64,000 nt of DNA. Source: an uncultured Myxococcales bacterium (GTDB lineage Bacteria > Myxococcota_A > Polyangia > JAAYKL01). The stretch covers positions 23,558-87,557 of the forward strand of contig CAZHCG010000002.1 of the NCBI GenBank assembly GCA_964530995.1. The letters are read 5' to 3'. Below, piece by piece: positions 18,718 through 34,600 of this stretch. The notes beneath the pieces were generated by a model, which was given only the letters and a program-made list of their open reading frames with translations, did no database searches and had not been told where the DNA came from. A program made the translations under genes and the position numbers. Numbering within the stretch: the first letter of the stretch is position 1; each line of letters opens with the position of its first letter.

Positions 18718-18975
18718 ATGGCGAGCGTCAAGACAGCGATCTCCGTGCCGCGCGAAATCTTCGAGCAGGCAGATCTTCTCGCCGAGGAGCTGGGGATCTC
18801 TCGCAGCCGCGTCTTCGCGCTGGCGGTGAAGAGGCTGGCCCGCCTGTTGGAGAACCGTCGGTTGCTCGAGGAGATCAACGCAGCCCACGTCGACGGCGAA
18901 AGAGGCGAAAGCGAAAAGCGGCTCCGCGAAGCGATGCGCGACAAGCACCGCTTATTGTTGCGGGAACAATGGTAG
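18718..18975 (+). CDS. mazE: Type II antitoxin, MazE/ribbon-helix-helix-like
   Basis: 85 aa from the internal Met (MASVKTAISVPREIFEQADLLAEELGISRSRVFALAVKRL). Overlaps mazF by 7 nt. The ORF-track N-terminal extension is the AT-rich operator. Confidence 0.65.
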   Translation: MASVKTAISVPREIFEQADLLAEELGISRSRVFALAVKRLARLLENRRLLEEINAAHVDGERGESEKRLREAMRDKHRLLLREQW

Positions 18976-19328
18976 CCAGGCAGGGGGATATCTTCTGGAT
19001 AGATCTCGGTCGCCCGTCCGGGTCGGGTCCGGGCTACAGGCATCCGCATGTCGTGATTCAAAACGATCTGTTCAACAAGAGCGGGATTAGAACAGTGGTG
19101 GTCTGCGCCCTGACCACGAGCAGGAGGCTCGCCGCCTCGCCGGGAAACGTGCCGCTGAAGAAGAAGACGGCCAACCTGCCCAGGAGCTGCACGGTCAACG
19201 TCTCGCAGATCTTCACCGTGGACAGACGAGACCTTGTGGAGAAGATCGGCACCCTCTCTTCCGAGACGGTGCGCCGTATTCTGGACGGAGTCCGCCTTTT
19301 GACCGAGCCGCGGGACGTGGAGCCGTAG
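18969..19328 (+). CDS. mazF: MazF/PemK-family endoribonuclease toxin
   Basis: 119 aa. RGDIFWIDLG...GYRHPHVVIQND...RTVVVCALTTS matches the PemK/MazF fold. Confidence 0.8.
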   Translation: MVARQGDIFWIDLGRPSGSGPGYRHPHVVIQNDLFNKSGIRTVVVCALTTSRRLAASPGNVPLKKKTANLPRSCTVNVSQIFTVDRRDLVEKIGTLSSETVRRILDGVRLLTEPRDVEP

Positions 19329-19366
19329 CCGCTCGTTTCGCGGAGCGCTCGAACGCGATGCCCTTT

Positions 19367-19395
19367 TTTACAGGACGATCGCGCCTGGCTATAAT
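19367..19395 (+). promoter_or_regulatory. Near-consensus sigma70 promoter (TTTACA - 17 nt - TATAAT) giving a near-leaderless MNT-HepT transcript
   Basis: A perfect TATAAT 7-8 nt upstream of the ATG at 19402. Preceded by a GC-rich dyad plus T-run (possible mazF terminator). Confidence 0.45.
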
Positions 19396-19401
19396 CGAGG
19401 T

Positions 19402-19857
19402 ATGAGCTTCACCGAGCAGATGGCGCTGCTGCCGCGACCGGTGGCCGGAGCGGTCGAGGAGATGGTCGCGCGGGACGAGGTCGACCTCGTGCTCCTCTTC
19501 GGCTCGAGAGCGCGCGGAGAGCACGGTCCGATGAGCGACGTCGACCTCGCGGTGCGGACGAACGAGAACGTCGAGAACATTCACGATTGGAAGCTCGCGA
19601 CTCTGGCGCGACTGGCCGGACCCGTCCAGAGCGTAGACCTCGTGCTCCTCGAGCAGGCCTCCCCGGCCCTGCGCTACCGCGTCGCCCGGGACGGCCTCCC
19701 CCTGTGGACGCGGGACGAGCGCGCGCTCCACGCCTTTCGTTTCGAAGCCGTGCGCGACTGGCTCGACTTCGAGCCGGTGACGCGCGCCCACAACGCCGCC
19801 CTGGCCCGGCGAATCGCCGACGGGACCTTCGGAAAGGGGGAGCCGCGCGATGGTTGA
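19402..19857 (+). CDS. Nucleotidyltransferase (MNT-type antitoxin of a HepT/MNT pair)
   Basis: Pol-beta-type NTase motif LFGSRARGEHGPMSDVDLAV. Overlaps the downstream HEPN gene by 8 nt. Confidence 0.8.
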   Translation: MSFTEQMALLPRPVAGAVEEMVARDEVDLVLLFGSRARGEHGPMSDVDLAVRTNENVENIHDWKLATLARLAGPVQSVDLVLLEQASPALRYRVARDGLPLWTRDERALHAFRFEAVRDWLDFEPVTRAHNAALARRIADGTFGKGEPRDG

Positions 19858-20301: not shown

Positions 20302-20517
20302 ATGAGAACCACGCTGAACATCGACGACGCCCTTCTCGCACAGGCGAGTAGCCTCACCGGGATCTCCGAGAAGACCGCGCTCGTGCGCGCGGGCCTCGAG
20401 GCGCTCGTCGAGCGCGAGAACGCCCGGCGCCTGACGCGGCTCGGCGGAAACGCGACGAGGCCTCCTGAAAATCGACCTTGCATCGCCGGCCCGGCAACGT
20501 GTAGCTTTTCGGCCTGA
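20302..20517 (+). CDS. Orphan VapB-like ribbon-helix-helix antitoxin / putative transcriptional regulator
   Basis: 71 aa. MRTTLNIDDALLAQASSLTG is a typical RHH N-terminus of VapB antitoxins. There is no PIN toxin downstream; the next gene is the 989-aa ORF 44 nt away. Confidence 0.6.
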   Translation: MRTTLNIDDALLAQASSLTGISEKTALVRAGLEALVERENARRLTRLGGNATRPPENRPCIAGPATCSFSA

Positions 20518-20561
20518 ATCTGGGTGGCCTCGGGCGTTACTCGATCGAGCTTGCGTGTTCA

Positions 20562-23531
20562 ATGGGAAGAAGAAAGAGAAAACGCAAGAAGCGTAGCGGT
20601 GGCGGCGGCGCGGCGGCGATCGGCGAGCTGGGAACCTCGGCGGAGGAAGCGGCGCGCGTCGAGGATCTCTTCCGCGGCGGCGCTTTCAGGGAGGCCCTCT
20701 CGCGAGCCAAGGCGCTGCACCGGCGCGACCGTACGGACGAGACCGAGGATCTCGTCGCCCGGGCCTACTCGGCGCGCGCCGACGCGATGATCGCCTCGGG
20801 GATGAGAGTCGAGGCGAAGGCCCTGCTCGACGTGGTCGAGAGCGATTTTCCCCGGCACCGCGAGATCGCGCTCCGCGGCCGGGCCTGCCTGGCGGCTTTG
20901 ACAGGGAAGGTCGACGCCCTGCTCGCTCCCCTGGCCCGCGACGATTTTCCAGAGGAGAAGCGGCGCGAGATCGAGGACGACATCCGGCGCTTCGTGGTCG
21001 ATCCGCGGCAGGTGGCCGGGTGCGGGGTTCTGAGCCGCGAGCACCCGCTGCGCCTCGCCGCCGGCGAGCTGTCCGCGGCGCTGGAGGCGGCGACGAGCGG
21101 GCCGGTCGGAGAGGAGGAGCTGGCCTGTCCGAGCGTGTCCCGCCGCAGCCCGCTGGCGCCCTGGAAGCTGCTCGCCCGCGCGATCGCCGCCTTCTACCGG
21201 CGCGACGACGCTGCGTGCGAGGAGCTGATCGGGGCGCTGCCGCCCGAATGCGCGCCCGCCGCGATCGCTCCGGCTTTCGGCGTCCTACTCGGCGGAGCGC
21301 GGCCGCGAATCGCCACGCCGCCGGTCGTGGCGCTGGTCGACGCCGTGCTCGGCGAGCGCGCTCGGCTGCGCGACGCCCTCGCCGCCGTGGACGAAACCAT
21401 CGCCGCGGGCAAGCGCCGGAAAGTGGGGCGGGTGGTCGGAGCGGCGATGAAGGAGTGCGAGCGGAGAGCGCCCGAGCTGGCACGGCGCCTCGCACAGCGG
21501 ATCGCGGCGCGGTGCTTGCTGGCGTACGTCCCGTTCGGTCATGTCCGCCGAGCGCTAGGCGGTAGAATAACGGTCGATTCCGATTTCTGGCGGCTGTTCG
21601 TGCGCACCAACGAGATCCTGGCCGAGCGCCACGGCGAGGCCGTATCGCTGTGCAACGCCTGCGCAGGCCTGGAGGAGCTCCGCAGGCACTCCCAGGCCGA
21701 GGGCCGGTTCTCGAAGGGCGGTCCAGAGGAAGCGACCCTCTATCTGCGCATGATCGACCTGCTCGATTGGCCACCCGACGCCGTCGTCGAGGAGGCGCGC
21801 GCCGTGTTCGAGGCGGAAGGGGGTGGGGATGGCCTGGCCCATCTCTACGAGGGCCAACCACCTGAAATCCGGGCGCGCTCTTCGCTGGTGGACGGATGTG
21901 ATTCGTACTTCCTCTACCCGGAGCTAATCTGGGAACGCGCGTGCCGCGCCGATCCGGATCCCGAGATTTTTTGCCGCAGGTTGGAGTGGACAGCGGCCAG
22001 GAACGGGGACTGGAGAGCGCTGGACGAGATTGCGCTCGCCTGGCGCGACGCCGCACCCGACGACGTGCGACCGCTCCTCCATCTGGCGCGCTCCGCCGAA
22101 AAGCGGGGCTCGCTGAACAAGGCGCTCGGACATGTCGAGCGCGCGGAGACGATCGAACCCAACCGAGGCGACGTGCAAAGGGCGCGGAGACGGCTGCTCA
22201 CGGCTACGGCGCGGCGACACCTGACGCAACGCAAGCTGCACCTGGTCGAGCGCGACCTCGACCGCCTGGGGCGACTGCCCGGCGCGGAAGAAGCCGGGAG
22301 ACGCGCGATGACAACGGCGCTGCGCTTTTGCAAGCACATCCTGTCGGGCGATATCGAGAGCGCGCGGAGCGGACTGGTCGCTCTGTACGAGCTGCTGGGC
22401 GATGAGCTGGCAGCCGGGGCGCTGTGCGAGGCGACGGCCGAGCCGGACGGCGCGCTCCTCTCCGCGGCCGGAAATCTCCTGCCGGACGCGCCCGCTCTCC
22501 TAGCTCCCGGCTCGATTGCGCTGGCGGCCGCGCGGGTCTGTGGGATCGGGGAGGATCACGAGACTCCGCTGGGCCCGCCCCGGCAGTGGAGGAGGAGAAT
22601 TCTCGACGATCTGGCCGCCGGATCGGGCGCGCTGGGAGCCGCCGAGCTGGCGGCTCTCGCCCGAGCCGCAACGCGCGCGCGCCAGTACGATTTGGCCTAC
22701 GCGGCTTCGGGTGCCGGATTGGCCCTCGGACCGCCGCACACGGCGCGTTTCTTGCTGCTGCGGGCCAATAGCCTGCCGCCATCGAGGTGGCTGCGGATCT
22801 TGATGTGCCTGCGGGCCGCGCTCGGTCTGGCCCGCAGACAGGGCGACAACCAGCTCGTCGCCGAGATCTTGACCGCCCACCGCGAGAGCGGGCGCCGAAC
22901 GAGGAGCCCTGCGTCGCCGCCGGGAGGCGGCGTGCTGGAAGAGCTGGATTTCTCCCGGACGGACGAGGTTGTCCTGCGGGAGCGGGAGGCGGCCTCAAGG
23001 CCCTCGTCGACAGGCTACGATCCGACGGACTCCTGGTGGACCGAGGAGCTGGCGCCGTGCGACTGCCCTGCCTGCCGGCGCGCGCGGGGGGAGCCGCCAT
23101 TGCCGCAGCAAGAGGAGTTCGAGGACGTTTTCGACCAGGGGGACGAGGAAGATTCGGTCATCGATTCGTTGGATTCGCTGGGCGAGATCCTGATGTCCCA
23201 GCTAAACATGCCCCCGGAGATGCTGCACGAGTTCGTCGAGGAGATGATCGACCGCGAGGGCAACCCCATGCCCGACCTGCCACCTCGGCTGGCTGCCTGC
23301 ATGCTCGAGATCGCGATTCGCTTCGGCCCCCGGATGATGGAGAATCCCGACCTGGAAGAGCTGAAAAAACGAGCTCCCGATCTCCACAGGCGCCTGGGCG
23401 AGGCGATACGCCAGACCGAGGCTTCCGGAGAGCTTCCGACCATTTGGTCCGAATCGACAGGACGCAAGAAGAGAAAAGACAAGAAGAAAAAGAACGGAAA
23501 AAAGAAAAAGAGAAAGAGCCGCCGTCGATAA
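20562..23531 (+). CDS. Large (989 aa) predicted all-helical hypothetical protein with polybasic N- and C-terminal tails
   Basis: A long uninterrupted ORF with no competing gene on either strand, 27 nt upstream of the J-like gene. N-terminus MGRRKRKRKKRSGGGG; C-terminus RKKRKDKKKKNGKKKKRKSRRR preceded by an acidic stretch. A CDCPACRRARGE Cys knuckle is present. No known catalytic motif recognised. Confidence 0.6.
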   Translation: MGRRKRKRKKRSGGGGAAAIGELGTSAEEAARVEDLFRGGAFREALSRAKALHRRDRTDETEDLVARAYSARADAMIASGMRVEAKALLDVVESDFPRHREIALRGRACLAALTGKVDALLAPLARDDFPEEKRREIEDDIRRFVVDPRQVAGCGVLSREHPLRLAAGELSAALEAATSGPVGEEELACPSVSRRSPLAPWKLLARAIAAFYRRDDAACEELIGALPPECAPAAIAPAFGVLLGGARPRIATPPVVALVDAVLGERARLRDALAAVDETIAAGKRRKVGRVVGAAMKECERRAPELARRLAQRIAARCLLAYVPFGHVRRALGGRITVDSDFWRLFVRTNEILAERHGEAVSLCNACAGLEELRRHSQAEGRFSKGGPEEATLYLRMIDLLDWPPDAVVEEARAVFEAEGGGDGLAHLYEGQPPEIRARSSLVDGCDSYFLYPELIWERACRADPDPEIFCRRLEWTAARNGDWRALDEIALAWRDAAPDDVRPLLHLARSAEKRGSLNKALGHVERAETIEPNRGDVQRARRRLLTATARRHLTQRKLHLVERDLDRLGRLPGAEEAGRRAMTTALRFCKHILSGDIESARSGLVALYELLGDELAAGALCEATAEPDGALLSAAGNLLPDAPALLAPGSIALAAARVCGIGEDHETPLGPPRQWRRRILDDLAAGSGALGAAELAALARAATRARQYDLAYAASGAGLALGPPHTARFLLLRANSLPPSRWLRILMCLRAALGLARRQGDNQLVAEILTAHRESGRRTRSPASPPGGGVLEELDFSRTDEVVLREREAASRPSSTGYDPTDSWWTEELAPCDCPACRRARGEPPLPQQEEFEDVFDQGDEEDSVIDSLDSLGEILMSQLNMPPEMLHEFVEEMIDREGNPMPDLPPRLAACMLEIAIRFGPRMMENPDLEELKKRAPDLHRRLGEAIRQTEASGELPTIWSESTGRKKRKDKKKKNGKKKKRKSRRR

Positions 23532-23558
23532 CGCGGAGGATCACCGAGGTCGAAACAG

Positions 23559-23867
23559 ATGGACGAGCATGTCGAAAACGACGATCCCTGGGCCGTTCTG
23601 GGAGTAGGGCACGACGCCACATCTGACGAGATACGCGGCGCCTACCTGGATTGTGTACGGCGCAACCCGCCCGAAGGGAACCCCGAAGCGTTCGAGCGGA
23701 TTCGCGACGCCTACGAGGCCATCTCCGATCCTCGCCGACGGATCGAGCGTCTGCTGCTCGCGGACGATCCGGAAAGACCGCTGGCGGCCCTGCTCGACGA
23801 TCTGCCGGCCGAGCGCCGCTTCGTCGGTCTCGGCCCCTGGCTGGCTGTCATCGCGAAAGGAAAATAG
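23559..23867 (+). CDS. J-like domain protein lacking the HPD motif
   Basis: 102 aa. DPWAVLGV...SDEIRGAYLDCVRRNPPEGNPEAFERIRDAYEAISDPRRR aligns to J-domain helices I-IV, but HPD is replaced by NPP. There is no G/F region, zinc finger or C-terminal substrate-binding domain. Confidence 0.6.
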   Translation: MDEHVENDDPWAVLGVGHDATSDEIRGAYLDCVRRNPPEGNPEAFERIRDAYEAISDPRRRIERLLLADDPERPLAALLDDLPAERRFVGLGPWLAVIAKGK

Positions 23868-23871
23868 GGAA

Positions 23872-24657
23872 ATGGAGGGCGAACAGCGGGACAGAGTCGA
23901 CCAGACGGCCTCTCGCGTGGCGGAGTGGGTCCGTGCTGTCCTCGCCGACGAGGCACCGCCGGCCGGTGTCGCCCCCGAGATCCTATCGGCTGCCGAGAGA
24001 AACGGGGGCAAGGGCGCGGAAAAGGGCGGCGGTTACGATCTGCACTCGCTGTGGTCGGCGCTGACGACCCTGGCCCGGGAGATCGGCCTCCAGGGGCGAT
24101 CGTTCGACCGACTCCGCGGCGACCTCTCCTCCGTGGCAGGACTTTCCGAGCGCGTGGACGCCGCGCTCGCCGCCTGCCGTGAGAACCCTACCGGAGCACA
24201 CGCCGGCCGCGAGGGCGAAGCGCACGAGTCGGTCCGGCGGGAGATGGTCGAGATACTGATCGATCTGCGCGAGCGGCTCGATCGGAGCCAGAACACGGCG
24301 CGGCGCGGGCTGGCTGCGGCGCGGGAGTCGGTCGCGTCCTCGTGGGTGCTGCGCGCGTTCGGCACGCGCGCCGCCGGACAAACGATCGAGGCGGCCGAGG
24401 CGATTGCCGACGGCGATCTGCTGGGCCTGGAGCGGATCGAGGAGCTGTTGCGCGAGTGGGGCGTGACCCGGTCGAAGTGCGAGGGGCGGCCTTTCGATCC
24501 CGCACGCATGCGAGCGGTGGAGATCGTGAGGACGGACGCCGAACCGGAAGGCCGGGTGCTCGGAGTCGTCCGCAACGGGTACGAGTGGCGGGGTCGGGTG
24601 ATCCGGCACGCCGAAGTCGAGGTCGCCAGGCGGGAGACAGAGGGAGAAGAACGATGA
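23872..24657 (+). CDS. Divergent GrpE-like nucleotide-exchange factor
   Basis: 261 aa. The C-terminal beta-domain matches GrpE (FDPARMRAVEIVRTD...GVVRNGYEWRGRVIRHAEVEVAR), after a long helical region. Its stop overlaps the Hsp70 start (ATGA). Confidence 0.65.
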   Translation: MEGEQRDRVDQTASRVAEWVRAVLADEAPPAGVAPEILSAAERNGGKGAEKGGGYDLHSLWSALTTLAREIGLQGRSFDRLRGDLSSVAGLSERVDAALAACRENPTGAHAGREGEAHESVRREMVEILIDLRERLDRSQNTARRGLAAARESVASSWVLRAFGTRAAGQTIEAAEAIADGDLLGLERIEELLREWGVTRSKCEGRPFDPARMRAVEIVRTDAEPEGRVLGVVRNGYEWRGRVIRHAEVEVARRETEGEER

Positions 24658-26447
24658 GCGGTGAGACGACGGCAGGTATCGATCTGGGTACGAGCAACTC
24701 GGAGATCGCGATGTTCGACGGAGACCGGGTGCGGGTGCTCGCTGCGGACGGCGAGGAGATGCTGCCTTCCTGCGTGGGGCTGTCCGCCTCCGGTGAGCTG
24801 CTCGTCGGCGCGCCGGCGCGCAACCAGCACTTGCTCTACCCGGAGCGCACCGCGCGTGGAATAAAGCGGATGATGGGCACGGAAGACGAGATCGAGCTGG
24901 GCGATCGCCGCTTCAGCCCCCAGGAACTCTCCGCCCTCTTGCTGCGCGAGCTGGTCGAGCGGGCCGCGCGCGAGTTGGGGAGCGCCCCTCGGCGGGCCGT
25001 GATCACGGTGCCGGCCTACTTCTCCGACGCCCAGCGGCAGGCCACTCGCGAGGCCGGGGCGCTGGCCGGCCTGGAGGTCGAGCGCATACTCAACGAGCCC
25101 ACCGCAGCCTGTCTGGCCTACGGCCGCGGGGGCGCCGGTGAGACCGTGATGGCTTACGATCTCGGCGGCGGAACGCTGGACGTCTCGCTGGTGCGCCTGG
25201 AGGGCAACGTGACCGAGGTGCTCGCTAGCCACGGCGACAACCGGCTCGGCGGAGACGATTTCACCCAGATCCTGTTCAATCGCCTCGCAGACGTCTTTGC
25301 CGAAGAGCACGGCATGGATCTCCGCCGCGGCGATCCGGCCGCCCGTTCCCGCCTGTGGTGGGCGGCGGAGGCGGCCAAGCGCAGGCTCAGCGAGGAGCCC
25401 TACGCCGAGATCAGGGAAGACGGGCTCGGCCAGCGCGACGGCAAGCCGCTGCACCTCGAGCTGGAGATCGGCAAAAACGAGTACGACGAGATGATCCGCC
25501 CGCTGGTGGAAAAGACGATGGAAAGCGTGACCCGGGCGATGGACGACTCCGGGGTCGGGGCTCGCGAGCTGGACGCCGTGCTGCTCGTCGGCGGCTCGAC
25601 ACGGACCCCGTTGGTTCGTGAACTGCTGCAAAATCGCCTCGAGCTCGAACCACACGAAGAAATCCACCCCGATCTGTGTGTGGCGCTGGGCGCGGGTGTG
25701 CTGGCCTCGAGAATCGACGGGCGGGAGGTCTCGAATGTGCTCGTGGACGTCTCGCCGTACTCGTTCGGCATCTCGTTCCTCGGCGAGCGGGGGGGCGCCC
25801 CCTACCCCTACTGCTACAGGCCGATCATCCGCGCCAACTCGGCGCTTCCGGTCACACGCACCGAACGCTATACGACCGCAACCCCCTATCAGCGCGAGGC
25901 CCGCATCGACGTCTTCCAGGGAGAAGACGCGGACGCGCTGCGCAACATCCCGGTGGGATCGTTCACCGTCGAGGATCTGAACCCCAGGGAGGACCCCAAC
26001 GAAATCCTGTGCAAGATGAGGTTGGATCTCGACGGAATGCTGAACGTCTCCGCGATCGAGAAGGAGACCGGACACGCCAAGCACGTCGCGATAGACGGCG
26101 CGCTGGCCCGCAAGAGCGAAGCGGAGATCGAAGCGGCCCGGGAGCGGCTGGAGACCCTTTTTGGCGACCGCGTCGGAGAGGGAGAAACCGCTGGAGCGGC
26201 GCCCGAGGACGCCTCCGGGCGAGACGGCTCGTCGGCGAGCCCGGACTGGCGCGAGGCAGTGGCACGTTCCGATGCGCTGGTCGGACGCTCGCAACGTCTG
26301 CTCGAGAAGATGCACGCCGAAGACAAGGAGGAGGCGATCGACCTCCACGAGGCGATTCGCCACGCGGTCGAGTCCGGCGACGAGGCCGCCCTGAGCGCTG
26401 CGGTGCGGGAGCTGGAGGATCTCGTGTTCTTCGTGGAGGGCAGATGA
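24654..26447 (+). CDS. Hsp70-family chaperone (DnaK paralog, 598 aa)
   Basis: GIDLGTSNS, DLGGGTLDVS and VLLVGGSTRTPLV NBD motifs, plus a substrate-binding domain (VLVDVSPYSFGISFLGE) and helical lid. Start verified at the ATG overlapping the GrpE-like stop. Shorter than canonical DnaK and not in a dnaK-dnaJ context. Confidence 0.85.
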   Translation: MSGETTAGIDLGTSNSEIAMFDGDRVRVLAADGEEMLPSCVGLSASGELLVGAPARNQHLLYPERTARGIKRMMGTEDEIELGDRRFSPQELSALLLRELVERAARELGSAPRRAVITVPAYFSDAQRQATREAGALAGLEVERILNEPTAACLAYGRGGAGETVMAYDLGGGTLDVSLVRLEGNVTEVLASHGDNRLGGDDFTQILFNRLADVFAEEHGMDLRRGDPAARSRLWWAAEAAKRRLSEEPYAEIREDGLGQRDGKPLHLELEIGKNEYDEMIRPLVEKTMESVTRAMDDSGVGARELDAVLLVGGSTRTPLVRELLQNRLELEPHEEIHPDLCVALGAGVLASRIDGREVSNVLVDVSPYSFGISFLGERGGAPYPYCYRPIIRANSALPVTRTERYTTATPYQREARIDVFQGEDADALRNIPVGSFTVEDLNPREDPNEILCKMRLDLDGMLNVSAIEKETGHAKHVAIDGALARKSEAEIEAARERLETLFGDRVGEGETAGAAPEDASGRDGSSASPDWREAVARSDALVGRSQRLLEKMHAEDKEEAIDLHEAIRHAVESGDEAALSAAVRELEDLVFFVEGR

Positions 26448-26728
26448 GCGCCGACCCGCCGAGATCGCGGTGCCCGGTCTGCCGGGCGCGCTTTCGCGGC
26501 ACGACCGGGTGTTCCCGCTGCGGCGCGGATCTCGAGCCGCTGATGACGATCGAGATTCTGGCCTGGCGAGCCAGGCAGGCCGCGCGCGCGGAGCTGCTCG
26601 CCGGCTCTCCGTCGAAAGCGATGCGGTGGGCCGTGCGCGCCCAGAGACTGCGCGCGACAGGCGCCGGGCGGGATCTCGAGATCCTGGCTGCGGCGCTGCT
26701 GGAGGCGGAAGAGCTGCTCGGAGAATGA
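26444..26728 (+). CDS. Small zinc-ribbon protein translationally coupled to Hsp70
   Basis: 94 aa with CPVC-x13-CSRC followed by an Ala/Arg-rich helix. Its ATG overlaps the Hsp70 stop (ATGA). Confidence 0.5.
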   Translation: MSADPPRSRCPVCRARFRGTTGCSRCGADLEPLMTIEILAWRARQAARAELLAGSPSKAMRWAVRAQRLRATGAGRDLEILAAALLEAEELLGE

Positions 26729-26774
26729 CCGGCGCTCCGGGGAGACGGCAAGAGATTTTCGTCGGGCCTCGTAA

Positions 26775-26882
26775 TCAACGCTCGTAGTGGCCGCCGATCG
26801 CCAGGACGTGGACGGCTTCGTCGTCGAAGGCGCAGACGATCTTTCGGCCAACTCTGATTGAATAGTACGGCTTTCCCGACTG
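26775..26882 (-). pseudogene. RelE/ParE-family toxin remnant (C-terminal 35 codons)
   Basis: Minus frame QSGKPYYSIRVGRKIVCAFDDEAVHVLAIGGHYER* matches the RelE/ParE C-terminus (YRxRVGDYRxxYxxDDExxxVxVLxxGHR). An in-frame TAA lies immediately upstream, so the N-terminal two-thirds is missing. Confidence 0.45.
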
Positions 26883-26890
26883 TTAGTCGA

Positions 26891-26927
26891 GCACCGCGGC
26901 GAGCGTTCGCGACTATCGCGCTTGACC
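26891..26927 (+). repeat. 37-bp imperfect direct repeat, copy 1 (gcaccgcggcgagcgttcgcgactatcgcgcttgacc)
   Basis: 34/37 identical to copy 2 at 27919..27955, about 1.03 kb downstream. It lies in the 5' region of the RHH remnant. Confidence 0.6.
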
Positions 26928-27056
26928 TTTCCGAGGGATCTCCTCGAGCAGGCCGACCGCGTTGCCAAGAGGGAATCGCGCAGCCGCAGCGAGCTGGTCC
27001 GGGAGGCGCTGCGCGCATACCTCGACCGGCGTCCCGAGTCGGAGACCGTCCCGTGA
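26922..27056 (+). CDS. Small RHH (CopG/VapB-like) antitoxin, possibly with a TTG start, or an N-terminally eroded gene
   Basis: Frame ...LTFPRDLLEQADRVAKRESRSRSELVREALRAYLDRRPESETVP* is a typical RHH antitoxin. There is no in-frame ATG (the open frame extends back to 26862). Its stop overlaps the GTG of the vapC remnant (GTGA). Confidence 0.4.
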   Translation: MTFPRDLLEQADRVAKRESRSRSELVREALRAYLDRRPESETVP

Positions 27057-27154
27057 TCCTGGCCGATACCTAGATCTGGGTCGATTTCCTGCGGCGAGGC
27101 GAGCCGGCGCTCGCCCGAGCGGACGAGATGGGTCACTTGCGGAACACCAGATAG
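27053..27154 (+). pseudogene. vapC (PIN toxin) remnant with a premature TAG at codon 7, truncated after ~33 codons
   Basis: VILADT*IWVDFLRRGEPALARADEMGHLRNTR resembles the VapC N-terminus (MILADTSIWIDFLRG...). It has an in-frame TAG at 27071-73, and the frame ends in the AT-rich promoter of the next TA module. Confidence 0.45.
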
Positions 27155-27185
27155 TATAACATAATGGTTTCATAAAGGAGTTATT

Positions 27186-27452
27186 ATGGATCACAAGGAA
27201 ACGGCTACTCTCTCCATCAAGAAGGTTCCCGGCACGCTCAAGCGCCGCCTGGCACGCCGGGCCGCGGCCGCGCACCGCAGTCTGAACGGCGAGCTGCTCC
27301 ACATCCTCGAGTCGGCCGTGGCAGAGGCCCGGCCCGACGAGGAGGGGATCGAGGAACGGCTCGAGCGGCTGAAGGCCGTCCGGGAGGCGATCGGAGGCCC
27401 GGGGATGACCGACGAGCAAGTCGAAGCGGCCATCGCCGAGAAACGGCCTTGA
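27186..27452 (+). CDS. RHH antitoxin (FitA/VapB-like)
   Basis: 88 aa. TLSIKKVPGTLKRRLARRAAAAHRSLNGELLHILESAV is the RHH fold. Overlaps the PIN gene by 4 nt. An AT-rich promoter patch lies at 27140-27185. Confidence 0.7.
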   Translation: MDHKETATLSIKKVPGTLKRRLARRAAAAHRSLNGELLHILESAVAEARPDEEGIEERLERLKAVREAIGGPGMTDEQVEAAIAEKRP

Positions 27453-27853
27453 TCGTCGTCGATACCAACATCGTCGTGCCGCTCGTGATCCCGGGCGAGA
27501 GAACGGAGATCGTCGAGCGACTCTTGCGACGCGACCCGGCCTGGCGGGCGCCGCCGCTCCTGTTCTCGGAGCTGCGCAACGTGCTGCTCGCCTACTTTCG
27601 AAAAGGGCTGGCGACCCGTTCCCAGTGCCTGAACGCGATCGAGGCCGTCCGCGGGCTTCTCGACTCCCGGGCCGAAGACGAGCCGGATGACAGCCACGTG
27701 CTCCGGCTCGCCGGCGATTCGGGCTGCACAGCGTACGACTGCGAGTTCGTGGCCATGGCCGAGCGCCTGCGATGCCGGCTCGTCACCTGGGACCGGCAGG
27801 TGCTCGCGGCGTTCGGCGAGCGGGCCGTCACTCCCGAGGTCATTTGCGGCTGA
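27449..27853 (+). CDS. vapC: PIN-domain toxin VapC
   Basis: 134 aa. MIVVDTNIVV start, conserved acidic residues (D5, E in LFSELRNV, D in YDCEFVAMA). Confidence 0.8.
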   Translation: MIVVDTNIVVPLVIPGERTEIVERLLRRDPAWRAPPLLFSELRNVLLAYFRKGLATRSQCLNAIEAVRGLLDSRAEDEPDDSHVLRLAGDSGCTAYDCEFVAMAERLRCRLVTWDRQVLAAFGERAVTPEVICG

Positions 27854-27918
27854 AAAGAGCCCCGCCGGCCGGACCGAGCAGAGCCGGCCGGCCCTTGCGG
27901 CCCGGAGCCCGCATCGTT

Positions 27919-27955
27919 GCACCCCGGCGAGCGTTCGCGACTATTGCGCTCGACC
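27919..27955 (+). repeat. 37-bp imperfect direct repeat, copy 2, overlapping the lspA stop codon
   Basis: gcaccccggcgagcgttcgcgactattgcgctcgacc. Positions 27941-27955 are the last codons and stop of lspA on the minus strand. Confidence 0.6.
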
Positions 27956-28576
27956 CGCCTTGTCCGCGGCGGGCTTCTTTGCGCGGTCGTCCTTCTTGCC
28001 CGGCAGCATCTGGAGGATCATCAACCCGATCCCGATCACGATCGCGGCGTCGGCCACGTTGAAGGTCGGCCAGTGGCGCTCGACTCCGCCCACGGTCACG
28101 TACCAGTCGACGAAATCGACCACGTAGCGGTAGACCAGCCGGTCGATCAGGTTGCCCACCGCGCCGCCCAGCACGAACGGCAGCGCGTAGAGCATCATCC
28201 GCTGCTCGGCCGGGGTCTTGCGGTACAGGTAGGGGATGAAGGCCGCCGCCAGCAGCGAGATCAGAATGAAAAAGGGGTAGCGGAACGACTCGGGCACGCG
28301 GCTCATCAGGCCGAAGGCGCTGGCGCAGTTCTCCACGTACTTGAAGTTGAACAGCCCGTCGATCACCTCGATCGACTCGCGGTGCCTCCGCACGAAGCGC
28401 TCGCGCGCGACCTCCTCGGCGCCGCTGGCGCAGACCGGGTACTCCTCGCCGCGGGCGTGGAAGGTCTCGTCGACCAGCGCGTGCAGGGCCCACTGCTTGC
28501 TGGCCTGGTCCGCCGCCACGGTCAGCGCGAACAGCACGACAAGACCGATCAGCGGCTTTTTCGCTCGTTTGGCCAC
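27941..28576 (-). CDS. lspA: Lipoprotein signal peptidase II
   Basis: 211 aa, four TM segments, conserved FNVADAAI and GAVGNLIDR motifs. Immediately downstream of ileS, the conserved ileS-lspA operon. Confidence 0.85.
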   Translation of the reverse strand: MAKRAKKPLIGLVVLFALTVAADQASKQWALHALVDETFHARGEEYPVCASGAEEVARERFVRRHRESIEVIDGLFNFKYVENCASAFGLMSRVPESFRYPFFILISLLAAAFIPYLYRKTPAEQRMMLYALPFVLGGAVGNLIDRLVYRYVVDFVDWYVTVGGVERHWPTFNVADAAIVIGIGLMILQMLPGKKDDRAKKPAADKAGRAQ

Positions 28577-31387: not shown

Positions 31388-31649
31388 GTAAACGAACCTC
31401 TATTGACAATCGGACGGCACTCGCTCTTCTCGCCGTTCCACCTCGCCCCGCCGGAGCGCAGCCCCGCGGCGGGGAGACGAAACATAGCACGTATCGCGGA
31501 TTTGGGTAGCTCCCGCAACTTTCCCGCAACTTTCACGGCTTTCGCAAACCATGGGGACAGATCGTCTCCAATCAGAACCAAATCCGTGGTACAAGTCGTC
31601 AGCATCAAAAGTGTAAAGTTGGCATCTGGCTGTACGGAGGTGATTCCCG

Positions 31650-34600
31650 ATGAGGTGGTTCGTTTCTAGAGCGATGCTCTGCTGGCTCGCGGCCGGGATG
31701 CTCCTGGCCGCCTGCGGCGAGAAGGACGAGGAGGTCGAGGACGGCGAGCAGAACCAGCGCCCGCTGGCGGTGGCTGACGGTCCGACCCAGGTCTCGATCG
31801 GAGGCGCGGTCACGCTCGACGGCTCGGGCAGCAGCGATCCGGACGGCGACGAGATCGCCTACCTCTGGCAGCAGGTCTTCGGTCCCGCGGTGGACGGCTC
31901 CAGCCCGCTGGAGGAGACCCTCTCGTTCAACGCGCCGCTCGAGGAGGCGACGCTCGGGTTCCAGCTGGTTGTCAACGACGGGCTCGAGGAGTCGTTGCCG
32001 GCCTACGTCGAGTTCGACGTGGTCGACGACAACGCCTCGCCGGTCGCCGACGCGGGCGAGGACCAGGCGACGCCGGGCGGCGAGACAGTGACGCTCTCCG
32101 GCTCGGGCAGCGACTCGGACGGGGACGCGCTGAGCTACGAGTGGGCGCAGGTCAGCGGCGACTACGTGGAGCTGGACGGCTCCGACAGCGCCGAGTGCTC
32201 CTTCGTCGCTCCCGAGAGCAACACCGTGCTGGCCTTCGAGCTGAGCGTCTCCGACGGGCTGCACACCTCCGAGCCGGATCTGGTGCTGGTCACCGTGCTG
32301 TGGAGCGGCGCGCCCTACGCCGACGCCGGCCCGGACCAGGTGGTCGAGCCCGGCCAGAGCGTGGTGCTCGACGGCTCCGGGGTCGACCCGGACGGAGCGC
32401 CGCTCGACTACTCGTGGAGCCAGCTCTCGGGCGAGACGGTCTCGCTCTCGGCGGGCGACATCCCCGACCCGACCTTCACCGCGCCCCAGACCGGCGGGGA
32501 GCTGGTCTTCGAGCTGATCGTCTCCAACGAGGTGCACAGCAGCGATCCCGACCAGGTCACGATCGCGGTCGACCGGCGGCCGATCGCCGACGCCGGCGAG
32601 CTCCAGATCGTCGCGTCGGGCGAGGTGGTGCAGCTCGACGGCAGCGGCAGCCTGGATCCGGACGGCGACTCGCTGAGCTACGAGTGGTCGCAGATCGCAG
32701 GCTCTCCGGTCGCGCTGGACGATCCGTTCGCGGCGCAGCCCTCGTTCACCGCTCCGGACGAGGACGTCAGCCTCGTCTTCCAGCTGGTGGTCGCGGACTC
32801 CTACTCCGAGAGCTACGCCGACGCGGTCGCGATCCAGGTCCAGCACAACCGCCCGCCCGAGGCCGACGCCGGCTCCAACGTGGGCACGCTCAACGGCCAG
32901 ACCGCGATCCTGGAGGGCTCGGCCAGCGACCCGGACGGCGATTCGATCATCGAGTATCAGTGGGAGGTGATCGGCACCCCGCCGGGCGGGGACGACTACC
33001 AGCTGAGCGGCCAGAGCTCGCCGACCGCTCACTTCACCCCGTTCGCCAAGGGGGAGTACACCCTCTCGCTGGCGGCGGCCGACGCAGAGGGCTTCGGCGC
33101 TCCGGATCTGGTCACGGTCGACTCCGAGAACAACCCGCCCACGGCCGAGGCCGGCGAGGACGTCACCCTGGTCAACACCCAGACCGCGGTGCTGGCCGGC
33201 TCGGGCGGCGACTACGACGGCGACGATCTCGCCTACCAGTGGTCGGTGACCGGCTCCCCGCAGGACGCCGCTTGGGACCTGATCGACGGCGACACGGATC
33301 ACCCGCGGCTGACGCCCCACACCAAGGGGAGCTACACCGTGCAGCTGATCGTCGACGACGGCGAGGACGCCAGCGCGCCGGACACGCTGACGCTGACCGC
33401 GACCAACAATCCTCCCGAGGTGGACGCCGGCGACGACTTCTCGGTGGCCGAGCTGGCACCGGCCCAGCTGGCGCCCGCGGTCACGGACCCGGACGGAGAG
33501 ACGCTGGACTACTGGTGGGAGATCGTCTCCACCGATCCCGAGGGCTCGAGCGGCAGCTTTTCCGACGCGAGCGCCGAGGCGCCCGAGCTGAGCGCCGACT
33601 CGCTGGGTCGCTACACGCTGCGGCTGACGGTCACCGACGGCGACCTGGCCTCGGACTGGGACGAGGTGAGCGTCGACTTCTACACACTGCCCGGCGAGGA
33701 GGAGCACGTCTTCGTCGCGGTGGAGGGCGACGACGCGGGCGGCTCCTGCGGCAGCAAGGCCGCGCCCTGCGCCACGCTCGGAACCGCGGTCCAGCTCGCC
33801 GACGCCGAGGGCAAGGATGTGATCGTCTCGGCCGGCGAGTACCAGCTCGTCGACCGCTCCCTCGAGCTGCCGCCGGGCCTGCGCCTGCTGGGCGGCTACG
33901 ATCCGGACAGCTGGGAGCGCGACGTGGATCAGTTCGAGACCGTCGTGCGCCCGGGCGGCCGGGTCGAGGAGAGCGGGGCGCTGATCGGGGACGGCCTGGA
34001 CAACGACTGCGACGCGCTGGTCGACGAGCCCGAGTGCATTGTCGAGGAGGAGGTCTGCAACAACCGCGACGACGACTGCGACGGCGTGGTCGACGACGTG
34101 CTCGCGGGCGAGTGCGGAGACGAGCTGGAGCCCAACGACGCCTCGGGCGACGCGGCCGCGATAGATTTCGGCGTGGCCTACGAGGGACTGGAGATAGTCG
34201 ACAGCGACACCGCCGACTGGTTCAGCTTCGAGCTGGCGGAGCTTCCCTCGAGCGGCGAGGGCTGGGAGCTGGAGATCCAGCTCGCCTGCAGCGAGTACTG
34301 CCCGACCGACGCCGCCGAGCAGATCGGGCTCGAGGTCTACCTGGACGGCACCGATCCGGCCGACCTGTTCTACAGCGACGAGACCGTCTACAGCGGCGGA
34401 ACCCACTACCCGATCGAGATCGACGTGCCGGCCGCCGAGGCGCAGACCGGGACCTACTACCTGGCGGTCAGCGCTCCGGCCTACGGCGGCTACTACGGCA
34501 ATTCGGCCGGGTACGATCTGGTCGCGGCGCTGCGCGAGGCGGGGCACGATCCCCAGGCGGGCGGGCTGTACGACCGGGCGCGACCCGAGTGCCGCGACTC

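Follow-up and report, generated by a model that had tools for sequence, protein, structure and literature searches.

The two 37-nt direct repeats that bracket an intact toxin–antitoxin (TA) pair in the 64-kb window (the whole stretch of DNA analysed here) are copies of the 3′ tail of lspA, the last piece of conserved backbone before a hypervariable TA island; comEC and lspA are convergent, and the island fills the gap between them. The repeat is best read as an ordinary recombination scar, not as a dedicated mobile-element site, and it probably arose when duplicative recombination (Campbell-type or unequal) stacked two island haplotypes that shared the lspA tail. Below, the window is compared with five contigs from relatives ~98% identical to it (L089–L093), a ~93% relative (L094) and L002, which belongs to the same metagenome-assembled genome (MAG) as L094. 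The features on which the argument turns are, in window coordinates:

20302–20447, + strand: 5′ two-thirds of VapB; the homology to L094 is lost at codon 49 and picked up again at 27020
20448–26759, + strand: strain-specific block within the island (989-aa protein, DnaJ, GrpE, Hsp70, Zn-ribbon ORF) that L090 and L094 lack
26760–26841, − strand: remnant of the yoeB 3′ end with 16 nt downstream, 93% identical to L090 8743–8824
26852–26890, − strand: yefM promoter/operator remnant (F39), found in relatives directly after the lspA tail
26891–26927, − strand: copy 1, an orphan lspA tail reading 'GQAR*' plus 22 nt, severed from lspA at its proximal edge
26928–27019, + strand: fragment r, from the interior of an RHH_1 antitoxin gene (Pfam RHH_1, 6.7e-8), with a non-homologous junction on each side
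27020–27115, + strand: last nine VapB codons and 5′ end of a PIN gene (the vapC pseudogene), 95% identical to L094 9254–9348
27186–27452, + strand: intact FitA-like RHH antitoxin (Pfam PF22513, 7e-10); dS 0.09 to the L094 orthologue
27449–27853, + strand: intact VapC PIN toxin (Pfam PIN, PF01850, 2.1e-8), 96% identical to the L094 orthologue P0124
27850–27892, − strand: hairpin followed by a U-run (ViennaRNA fold), a putative lspA terminator lying inside the 'cargo'; the hairpin is conserved in L094
27919–27955, − strand: copy 2, the functional lspA tail (last four codons, GRAQ, TAG stop and 22 nt of 3′ flank), contiguous with lspA
27941–28576, − strand: lspA, signal peptidase II (Pfam Peptidase_A8, 1.2e-35), by synteny the last gene of the conserved ileS–lspA block

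Results

A duplicated lspA tail

A repeat finder and a pattern search of the 64-kb window both recovered the pair at 26891–26927 and 27919–27955, identical at 34 of 37 positions, with a start-to-start distance of 1,028 nt, 991 bp of cargo between the copies and a perfect common core of 20 nt. The initial annotation, made from the letters alone, was thus accurate in describing imperfect 37-bp direct repeats 1.03 kb apart, of which the distal one overlaps the lspA stop. That stop is the TAG at 27941–27943, and copy 2 therefore consists of the last four lspA codons, the stop and 22 nt downstream. A match of this kind is not expected by chance (0 of 100 shuffles; none expected for a 37-nt pair). 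When the 60 nt on each side of both copies were aligned, no similarity extended beyond the 37 nt in either direction, and a longer, hidden duplication was rejected on these grounds.

The lspA–ileS backbone is ~99% identical between the window and L090, and the 22 nt past the stop are conserved among relatives that are ~93–98% identical. The VapC stop lies 88 nt from the lspA stop. The putative lspA terminator has a loop that is too long for the terminator scan.

The interval between the copies

The reported content of the interval (an RHH remnant, a vapC pseudogene and an intact FitA-like/VapC pair) agrees with both the Pfam assignments and the comparison with L094. The antitoxin stop and the VapC start overlap (TTGA) and both genes are intact, which fits a type II VapBC/FitAB pair. 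The pseudogene carries an in-frame TAG (TCG to TAG) and a 335-nt deletion between GCTCGCC microhomologies; the intact PIN protein of L094 is 118 aa long. Apart from the repeat, the rearrangements of the island are microhomology deletions, this one among them. We found nothing unusual about the TA genes themselves. Exact look-ups of VapC and FitA by DNA reference returned nothing on record, and PADLOC scans of FitA/VapC and of the Hsp70 block gave no defence-system match.

Fragment r, 92 nt long, is truncated at both ends, retaining only positions 7–39 of the RHH_1 profile and nine residues after the domain, and it has no homology to the VapB of L094 or L090. No homologue was found in any of the fetched loci (blastn, tblastn) or in a protein search. 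The left junction (26927|26928) interrupts lspA four codons short of its stop, and the first profile positions of the RHH gene are missing there. At the right junction (27019|27020), VapB's last nine codons are joined to the RHH domain. Since copy 1 is cut inside lspA and joined to a doubly truncated RHH fragment, its inner junction is illegitimate.

Empty sites, an uninterrupted array and a strain-variable gap

In all five contigs of the ~98% relatives a single lspA tail is followed by the left flank of copy 1 and then by intact yefM–yoeB (identified in L090 by Pfam PhdYeFM and YoeB_toxin); the tail and the next 39 nt align to window positions 26927–26852 at 93%. Because this single tail runs directly into the left flank of copy 1, these contigs represent the empty site for the 991-bp cargo. 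The interval is therefore polymorphic among strains, and the same contigs supply the comparison of the lspA 3′ end with relatives lacking the TA module that the initial annotation had recommended.

In L094, VapB, PIN, FitA, VapC and the terminator form an uninterrupted array with no repeat around it, which matches window positions 20302–20447, 27020–27115 and 27132–27915, the match ending 4 nt before copy 2. The PIN–FitA–VapC DNA is contiguous with VapB, HepT, MNT, MazEF and comEC. As this array is uninterrupted and free of the repeat, the cargo is not a discrete cassette, and the earlier view of the TA pair as repeat-bounded cargo does not hold.

Homology between the window and L002, L090 and L094 breaks no more than 4 nt from the distal edge of the tail, and three island variants start within about 4 nt after it: the yefM promoter, the VapC terminator and, in L002/L094, unrelated DNA. 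On a rough estimate that takes the 88 nt separating the VapC and lspA stops into account, such a coincidence near one point would be uncommon without being rare. Unrelated DNA separates terminator from tail in MAG BLK3-3. FitA–VapC–terminator directly adjoining the tail was found in no contig but the window strain's own, and neither donor nor parental haplotypes were observed directly. A duplicated lspA tail occurred at none of 78 other lspA loci (GTDB genomes, fetched flanks of up to 6 kb), in a scan of moderate sensitivity for which the window's own pair falls barely within the mismatch limit. Six TA families lie between comEC and lspA; their presence varies by strain and many of the genes are pseudogenes. 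In L096–L099, whose LspA is 68–69% identical, lspA is followed by neither comEC nor a Pfam-recognisable TA island, and the hot spot is therefore specific to the clade.

The flank of copy 1

Copy 1 retains its original neighbours, the yefM promoter and the yoeB remnant, a context that the initial annotation had overlooked. In L090 this promoter reads TTGACT–17 nt–TACTGT, with a palindrome AACAGT–N12–ACTGTT, 19 nt upstream of the yefM ATG; the copy in the window does not reach the threshold of the consensus promoter scan. About 467 nt, comprising yefM and the 5′ part of yoeB, have been lost from the window. An intact VapB C-terminus (RLGGTLP[ED]LREVPRRR) is kept in both L094 and L090, and the break in the window's VapB is therefore derived. 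Of the strain-specific block to the right of that break, the Zn-ribbon protein was matched by look-up in the same strain only.

Divergence and SNP phase

The three differences between the copies form a mixed L090/L002 pattern. Cargo-side sites match L002 and outer-flank sites match L090, a phase that is based on two informative sites and on proxy references. Island pieces coalesce deeper than the backbone. The stretch from yoeB through the promoter to copy 1 differs from L090 at 11 of 158 positions, more than the neutral rate of about 0.029 predicts (p = 0.007). FitA/VapC dS relative to L094 (0.08–0.09) is below that of pooled comEC, ileS and lspA (p = 0.002), but not below that of the adjacent lspA alone (p = 0.46). 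A long imported tract in lspA was rejected: relative to L090, the three SNPs in copy 2 are followed by none before position 28085.

Mobile-element machinery

The initial annotation had reported no integrase nearby, and the domain search agrees: it detected no domain of an integrase, a recombinase or a transposase in the ORFs at 12.7–45 kb. No terminal inverted repeats were detected in the cargo, whose ends score 7 where shuffled sequence averages 7.7, and the 1,065-bp unit had no blastn match in plasmid and phage collections. A transposon target-site duplication was rejected, as the 37-nt repeat is imperfect and neither terminal inverted repeats nor a transposase was found. An integron cassette was rejected as well: the sole GTT in the 37-mer precedes CGC and so misfits GTTRRRY, the cargo ends show no inverted-repeat structure and no IntI integrase was found.

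Discussion

A probable scar of stacked island haplotypes

Several features of the locus are those of a recombination scar: a conserved anchor borders a strain-variable region, a displaced 3′ fragment of that anchor is kept with its former neighbours, and a non-homologous junction truncates genes. At least two alternative versions of the island abut the same lspA tail, yefM–yoeB in the ~98% relatives and VapB–PIN–FitA–VapC in the ~93% relative, and the window carries both versions stacked, in the order yoeB remnant, yefM promoter, copy 1, RHH fragment, VapB end and PIN remnant, FitA–VapC, terminator, copy 2 and lspA. We infer that a single duplicative event probably produced this arrangement through homologous pairing and crossover within the shared lspA tail, plus one illegitimate joint that cut lspA four codons before its stop and cut an RHH antitoxin gene. 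It would amount to the Campbell-type insertion of a piece, either circularised or in tandem, that ran from the RHH fragment through FitA–VapC and terminator to the tail or, equivalently, to an unequal exchange. The SNP phase (two sites, proxy references) would fit a crossover within the 20-nt core, and the deeper coalescence of the island pieces and the derived break in VapB also speak for this model. The outer edge of the repeat would then mark the end of homology between the island versions, and its inner edge the accidental breakpoint in lspA. The event may have run in either direction: (i) the 1-kb VapC side came to lie next to lspA; or (ii) the 6.5-kb left-hand block arrived with a stray lspA tail. 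For RecA-mediated exchange, 37 nt of homology and a perfect core of 20 nt are short, and this counts against the stacking model, as do the failure to observe the parental haplotypes directly, the unrelated DNA between terminator and tail in MAG BLK3-3, the lack of a homologue of fragment r in the loci and proteins searched, and the clustered starts of the three island variants.

Of the two possibilities raised by the initial annotation, a duplication at an insertion site stands to the extent that the lspA 3′ end is duplicated at a junction, whereas a site for site-specific excision or exchange is not supported, in view of the repeat-free L094 array, the joint to a doubly truncated RHH gene and the missing terminal inverted repeats. 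The latter possibility would make the copies the attL and attR of a small integrase-less element (cis-mobilisable, or a decayed island), integrated site-specifically at the lspA 3′ end and excisable or exchangeable by an integrase encoded elsewhere in the genome. Several observations would suit attachment sites: imperfect direct repeats cover the 3′ end of a housekeeping gene and restore it, so that the gene stays intact, close relatives have a single-copy empty site, the SNP phase (two sites, proxy references) would allow a crossover within the core of 20 nt, and the starts of three variants, all some 4 nt or less from the distal edge of the tail, would be more natural under a site-specific process. 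We nonetheless regard this reading as improbable, given that the ORFs at 12.7–45 kb include no recombinase, that the cargo is continuous with VapB and its array in L094, that the inner end of copy 1 adjoins a gene fragment truncated on both sides, that terminal inverted repeats and plasmid or phage similarity are lacking, that the site is not reused at any of the 78 other lspA loci, and that the 19-mer core gave only chance matches in the metagenome collection. A related and decidedly improbable variant treats the distal edge of the tail as a site-specific insertion point at which a trans-acting recombinase swaps promoter-to-terminator TA cassettes. It draws on the same clustering of the three variant starts and on the identical boundaries of the yefM–yoeB cassette in two different contexts; if true, it would mean an integron-like cassette platform on a housekeeping gene in Polyangia, with the 37-mer pair as a still-active attL/attR.

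The repeat could also derive from a local tandem duplication in one ancestral genome, running from the interior of an antitoxin gene to lspA codon 207, of which later deletions and replacements left only 37 nt. The topology is the same as in a Campbell insertion, with the joint between tail and RHH fragment as the duplication junction, and the island contains several microhomology-mediated deletions. This origin is unlikely all the same: no similarity persists past the 37 nt on either side, the lspA-proximal copy must have suffered a deletion ending precisely at the distal edge of the tail, the other copy must have been replaced by the Hsp70 block and the yefM–yoeB cassette, and the mixed L090/L002 pattern fits two source lineages better than a recent self-duplication. 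The window and its relatives are metagenome assemblies, and the structure resembles two haplotypes in series, as if an assembler had joined co-existing strains at the shared 37-mer. We consider such an artefact very improbable: the exact run common to the copies is only 20 nt, in our judgement less than the k-mers that assemblers usually employ, a chimeric join would not account for the junction between tail and RHH fragment, which is expected in no parental haplotype, and the independently assembled Logan contig L001 (SRR7048224) is 100% identical over both copies and all junctions between them. It is equally hard to credit that selection has kept the 37-mer twice as a functional motif, be it bound by a protein or active as RNA, or that it belongs to a dispersed repeat family. 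The conserved 22 nt after the lspA stop and a weak predicted hairpin (about −12 kcal/mol) speak for a motif, but copy 1 sits amid pseudogene debris and relatives are single-copy. A search for further copies returned no third one in the 64-kb window (up to three mismatches allowed), and a scan of the metagenome_contigs collection with the 19-mer core gave seven matches, all with unrelated flanks and attributable to chance; a dispersed (REP-like) repeat was rejected accordingly. That collection is incomplete (JGI contig L089 has the 19-mer yet was not returned), so absence from it is weak evidence.

Known systems

The stacking of haplotypes that we favour has a close counterpart in the C-terminal displacement and orphan arrays at Rhs, CDI and T6SS effector–immunity loci, which are attributed to homology-facilitated illegitimate recombination (Kirchberger et al. 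2017, PMC5361080, citing Jackson 2009, de Vries & Wackernagel 2002, Prudhomme 2002 and Meier & Wackernagel 2003). As at those loci, a conserved anchor gene lies beside a variable toxin/immunity region, incoming DNA brings a new 3′ end with its cargo while the old 3′ end and its neighbours are kept downstream as orphans, and there is one non-homologous junction and no integrase. Here, however, the anchor is the housekeeping gene lspA in place of a polymorphic toxin gene, the cargo consists of type II TA pairs, and the displaced piece is only 12 coding nt, a stop and 3′ flank and hence generates no diversity of proteins. Moreover, the homologous segment is duplicated, which points to a circular or tandem intermediate and not to a plain one-sided replacement.

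In Campbell-type single-crossover integration, circular DNA enters through a short shared segment, which ends up as a direct repeat flanking the insert; its copies are donor/resident hybrids, and the reverse reaction restores a single copy. In the window, too, the entire shared segment flanks the insert as a direct repeat, but the window shows no replicon or suicide vector, its shared segment is only 37 nt, and the circle is hypothetical, its closure joint being the accidental junction between lspA and RHH. Integrase-less elements flanked by att sites are also known, among them the cis-mobilisable elements derived from ICESt1/ICESt3 (fda 3′ end) and pseudo-SCC (rlmH 3′ end). They share with our locus direct repeats containing a housekeeping 3′ end around a small recombinase-less cargo, and empty sites in related strains. 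Unlike theirs, our cargo runs on into its chromosomal neighbours in L094 and has a gene truncated at both ends as its inner boundary; the analysis found neither a cognate integrase nor a parent element, and 78 other lspA loci show no reuse. In being packed, strain-variable and rich in pseudogenes, the island resembles other chromosomal type II TA islands (VapBC, FitAB, YefM–YoeB, MazEF, MNT–HepT).

Neither a new kind of mobile element nor a new mechanism is revealed by this locus. Its value is as a well-bounded example of TA-island growth, in which gene sets sharing an anchor would be stacked instead of swapped, with an orphan piece of the anchor left as the scar. For annotators, it illustrates that a direct repeat over the 3′ end of a gene is not automatically an att site. 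The comEC–lspA gap is a hot spot of strain variation in Polyangia, differing even between genomes that are ~98% identical. The repeat has no dedicated function today, and rare RecA-type recombination between the copies could delete the 1,028-bp unit and leave lspA intact.

The repeat is an orphan lspA tail

The initial annotation had described a 37-bp imperfect direct repeat around a toxin–antitoxin (TA) module, and the repeat was readily recovered. A repeat finder returned a two-copy family in the window at 26891-26927 and 27919-27955 (92% identity, spacing 1028), a degenerate pattern search allowing ≤3 mismatches found 2 sites in the 64 kb with 0 expected from 100 shuffles, and a search with the 19-nt core gave the same two sites and no more. 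The copies differ at 3 positions, share a 20-nt perfect run and, when aligned with 60 nt of flank on either side, have no similarity beyond 37 nt. The whole region is 100% identical in a separately assembled contig (L001, Logan SRR7048224). Copy 2, read on the minus strand, is GGT CGA GCG CAA TAG plus 22 nt, i.e. the final four lspA codons with their stop, then the first part of the 3′ flank, in agreement with the earlier claim that it encodes the last residues of LspA on the opposite strand. Copy 1 (minus strand, GGT CAA GCG CGA TAG plus 22 nt) is likewise an lspA tail, but one not joined to any gene: the 37-nt repeat is an orphan lspA tail. Its reading as a dispersed or functional motif was unsupported, with two copies in the window and one tail per relative. 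Negative scans of the metagenome_contigs collection weigh little because that collection is incomplete; JGI contig L089 (Ga0153773_1012946) has the 19-mer core, yet the scan missed it.

The host lineage is Polyangia (Myxococcota; G+C 67%), and the gap between comEC and lspA, 9.3 kb, is a TA island:

16187-18676, plus strand: comEC, converging with lspA; left island border
Island, first part: MazF, MNT, HepT, then the VapB gene
Island, second part: 989-aa protein, DnaJ, GrpE, Hsp70, Zn-ribbon ORF
Island, third part: toxin C-terminal fragment (minus strand), copy 1, RHH remnant, PIN remnant, FitA-VapC, copy 2
27941..28576, minus strand: lspA (Peptidase_A8, 1.2e-35)

The content between the copies (RHH_1 remnant, PIN pseudogene, intact FitA-like RHH and intact PIN VapC) is as first annotated, as is the lack of an integrase nearby: predicted genes between 12.7 and 45 kb carry no integrase or transposase domain. 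As a circumstantial pointer to foreign-DNA uptake, comEC is a DNA-uptake channel gene. A terminator-like GC hairpin followed by CTTCTTT (27954-27973, plus strand) lies inside the last lspA codons, starting at the proximal edge of copy 2; this putative hairpin could stop transcription reading out of VapC.

Close relatives carry an empty site

Three other data sets supplied five contigs (L089-L093) with LspA variants in the same 90% cluster; over the stretch that begins at the PKD-protein gene, spans ileS and lspA and ends at window position 27919, they match the window at ~98-99%. Each has one tail, followed by the equivalent of window 26890-26852, the left flank of copy 1 (93% identity), and then by intact yefM and yoeB on the lspA strand (Pfam). 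As the single tail is continuous with the copy 1 flank, these contigs represent the empty site for the 991-bp cargo between the copies, and the comparison of lspA 3′ ends proposed initially thus finds the interval polymorphic among strains. Since the tail runs into that flank and then yefM, the 39-nt stretch next to copy 1 is the yefM promoter/operator, which in L090 reads TTGACT-17 nt-TACTGT, with a palindrome AACAGT-N12-ACTGTT, 19 nt upstream of the yefM ATG. The yoeB 3′ end aligns with window 26841-26760, so the 'RelE-like fragment' of the window is a yoeB remnant. Elsewhere in the island, MazF, the ORF upstream of it and MNT (window 18756-19841) are present in the window and in L094, a contig of the ~93% relative, and missing from L090, where HepT is truncated and fused to a VapB/PIN remnant without an MNT partner (L090 8884-9273).

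The ~93% relative, MAG BLK3-3.bin.217, has an uninterrupted array on L094: comEC, MazEF, MNT, HepT, VapB, an intact 118-aa PIN gene, FitA, VapC (96% identical to window VapC) and a terminator.

Matches between L094 and the window
L094 9083-9228; window 20302-20447; 83%
L094 9254-9348; window 27020-27115; 95%
L094 9684-10475; window 27132-27915; 94%

The match ends 4 nt short of copy 2, with unrelated DNA thereafter to the contig end. On L002, from the same MAG, ileS-lspA and one tail are followed by unrelated DNA; its homology with the window ends at 27923, 4 nt inside copy 2. Judged from these alignments, the cargo is not a discrete cassette. The VapB C-terminus RLGGTLP[ED]LREVPRRR is retained in both L094 and L090, whereas in the window the gene breaks off at codon 49 and continues into junk; 20448-27019 is therefore the DNA that the window has in excess of L094, with the Hsp70 block, the yoeB remnant, copy 1 and the yefM promoter beside it, and an RHH fragment of 92 nt. 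The RHH fragment (26928-27019) enters the RHH_1 profile at position 7, and all that follows it of VapB is the final nine codons; neither the fetched loci nor a protein search gave a homologue, and both its borders are thus non-homologous junctions. The PIN pseudogene carries TCG->TAG and a 335-nt deletion between two GCTCGCC motifs, which shows that events mediated by microhomology are common in the island.

The Hsp70 block, ~6.3 kb within the disrupted VapB (20448-26759), encodes the 989-aa protein (no significant Pfam match, no PADLOC hit), DnaJ, GrpE, an Hsp70-like protein and the Zn-ribbon ORF. Neither the 98% relative (L090) nor the 93% relative (L094) has it, and it resembles an accessory, chaperone-like module peculiar to this strain. 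The unrelated DNA of BLK3-3.bin.217 (L094 10476-10914 and L002 6655-7041), starting at points equal to window 27915 and 27923, counts as a third island variant sharing this boundary; both contigs end a few hundred nt on, and the DNA there may be a repeated element that breaks assembly.

Origin of the repeat

The two repeat edges have different origins. At the distal, outer edge the island versions stop being homologous, and this is where, within ~4 nt, the VapC terminator, the yefM promoter and the unrelated BLK3-3 DNA all begin; at the inner edge lspA was broken by accident, four codons short of its stop. A single crossover within the shared segment would yield the layout 'resident flank - tail - foreign piece - tail - gene', provided that one partner was circular or tandem, its closure joint being the lspA|RHH junction.

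Variable positions of the repeat, numbered in lspA orientation
Copy 1: 5 A, 11 G, 32 C
Copy 2: 5 G, 11 A, 32 G
L090: 5 A, 11 A, 32 C
L002: 5 A, 11 G, 32 G

The cargo-side sites (copy 1 position 11, copy 2 position 32) are of the L002 type, L002 sharing a MAG with L094, and the outer-flank sites (copy 1 position 32, copy 2 position 11) are of the L090 type, a phase that, with two informative sites, hints at a single crossover. Our best reading is that the repeat is a recombination scar in a fast-changing TA island. In one direction of the event, a yefM-yoeB genome would have gained the 1-kb VapC side beside its lspA; in the other, a VapC-type genome would have received, within VapB, a 6.5-kb piece with a stray lspA tail at its end. 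As evidence on the direction, dS of FitA/VapC against L094 (0.08-0.09) is below that of the pooled backbone (p=0.002; comEC 0.21, ileS 0.17, lspA 0.12), but not below that of adjacent lspA alone (p=0.46). The yoeB-promoter-copy 1 stretch differs from L090 at 11/158 positions, above the neutral inter-strain rate of ~0.029 (p=0.007), and lspA has no long divergent tract adjoining copy 2.

Alternative explanations and known systems

The initial annotation had offered either duplication at an insertion site or a site for site-specific recombination. The former stands in part, in that the lspA 3′ end is duplicated and an empty site exists. Site-specific integration at the lspA tail draws on that empty site, the repeat geometry and the coincidence of variant boundaries at the tail edge, although the last amounts to only two independent events in a space of 88 nt (chance likelihood judged ~10-20%); with no recombinase found nearby, cargo that is not discrete, a boundary gene fragment truncated on both sides, no inverted repeats, a unit without plasmid or phage similarity and no reuse of the site among 78 other lspA loci, we consider it unlikely, and a site-specific cassette platform there very unlikely. 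Tandem duplication followed by decay would give the same topology at the cost of more events, some necessarily precise, and keeps a small chance. A chimeric assembly, which cannot make the tail|RHH junction and is contradicted by the independent identical contig, is extremely improbable.

The type of event behind the scar is already known. Among described processes, the nearest is C-terminal displacement with orphan arrays at Rhs, CDI and T6SS effector-immunity loci, ascribed to homology-facilitated illegitimate recombination, in which three parts stand in series: a conserved anchor, a newly arrived 3′ end and its cargo, and the former 3′ end together with what adjoined it (PMC5361080). Here, in contrast, a housekeeping gene serves as the anchor, only 12 nt of coding sequence were displaced, and the shared segment is duplicated, Campbell-like. 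Att-flanked integrase-less elements are alike in outline, but the lspA tail departs from them in discreteness, recombinase and reuse. In deeper relatives, with LspA 68-69% identical, lspA is followed by neither comEC nor a recognisable TA island, so the hot spot is specific to the clade of the window. In one of them (L096 9119-9573, LspA 68% identical), two small overlapping ORFs of 86 and 65 aa without a Pfam hit lie ~500 nt after lspA on the opposite strand, and could be an unrecognised TA pair. Upstream of ileS, the intergenic stretch 31419-31669 is locally hypervariable: per 250 nt it shows 34 differences from L090 (background 0-10) and 71 from L002.
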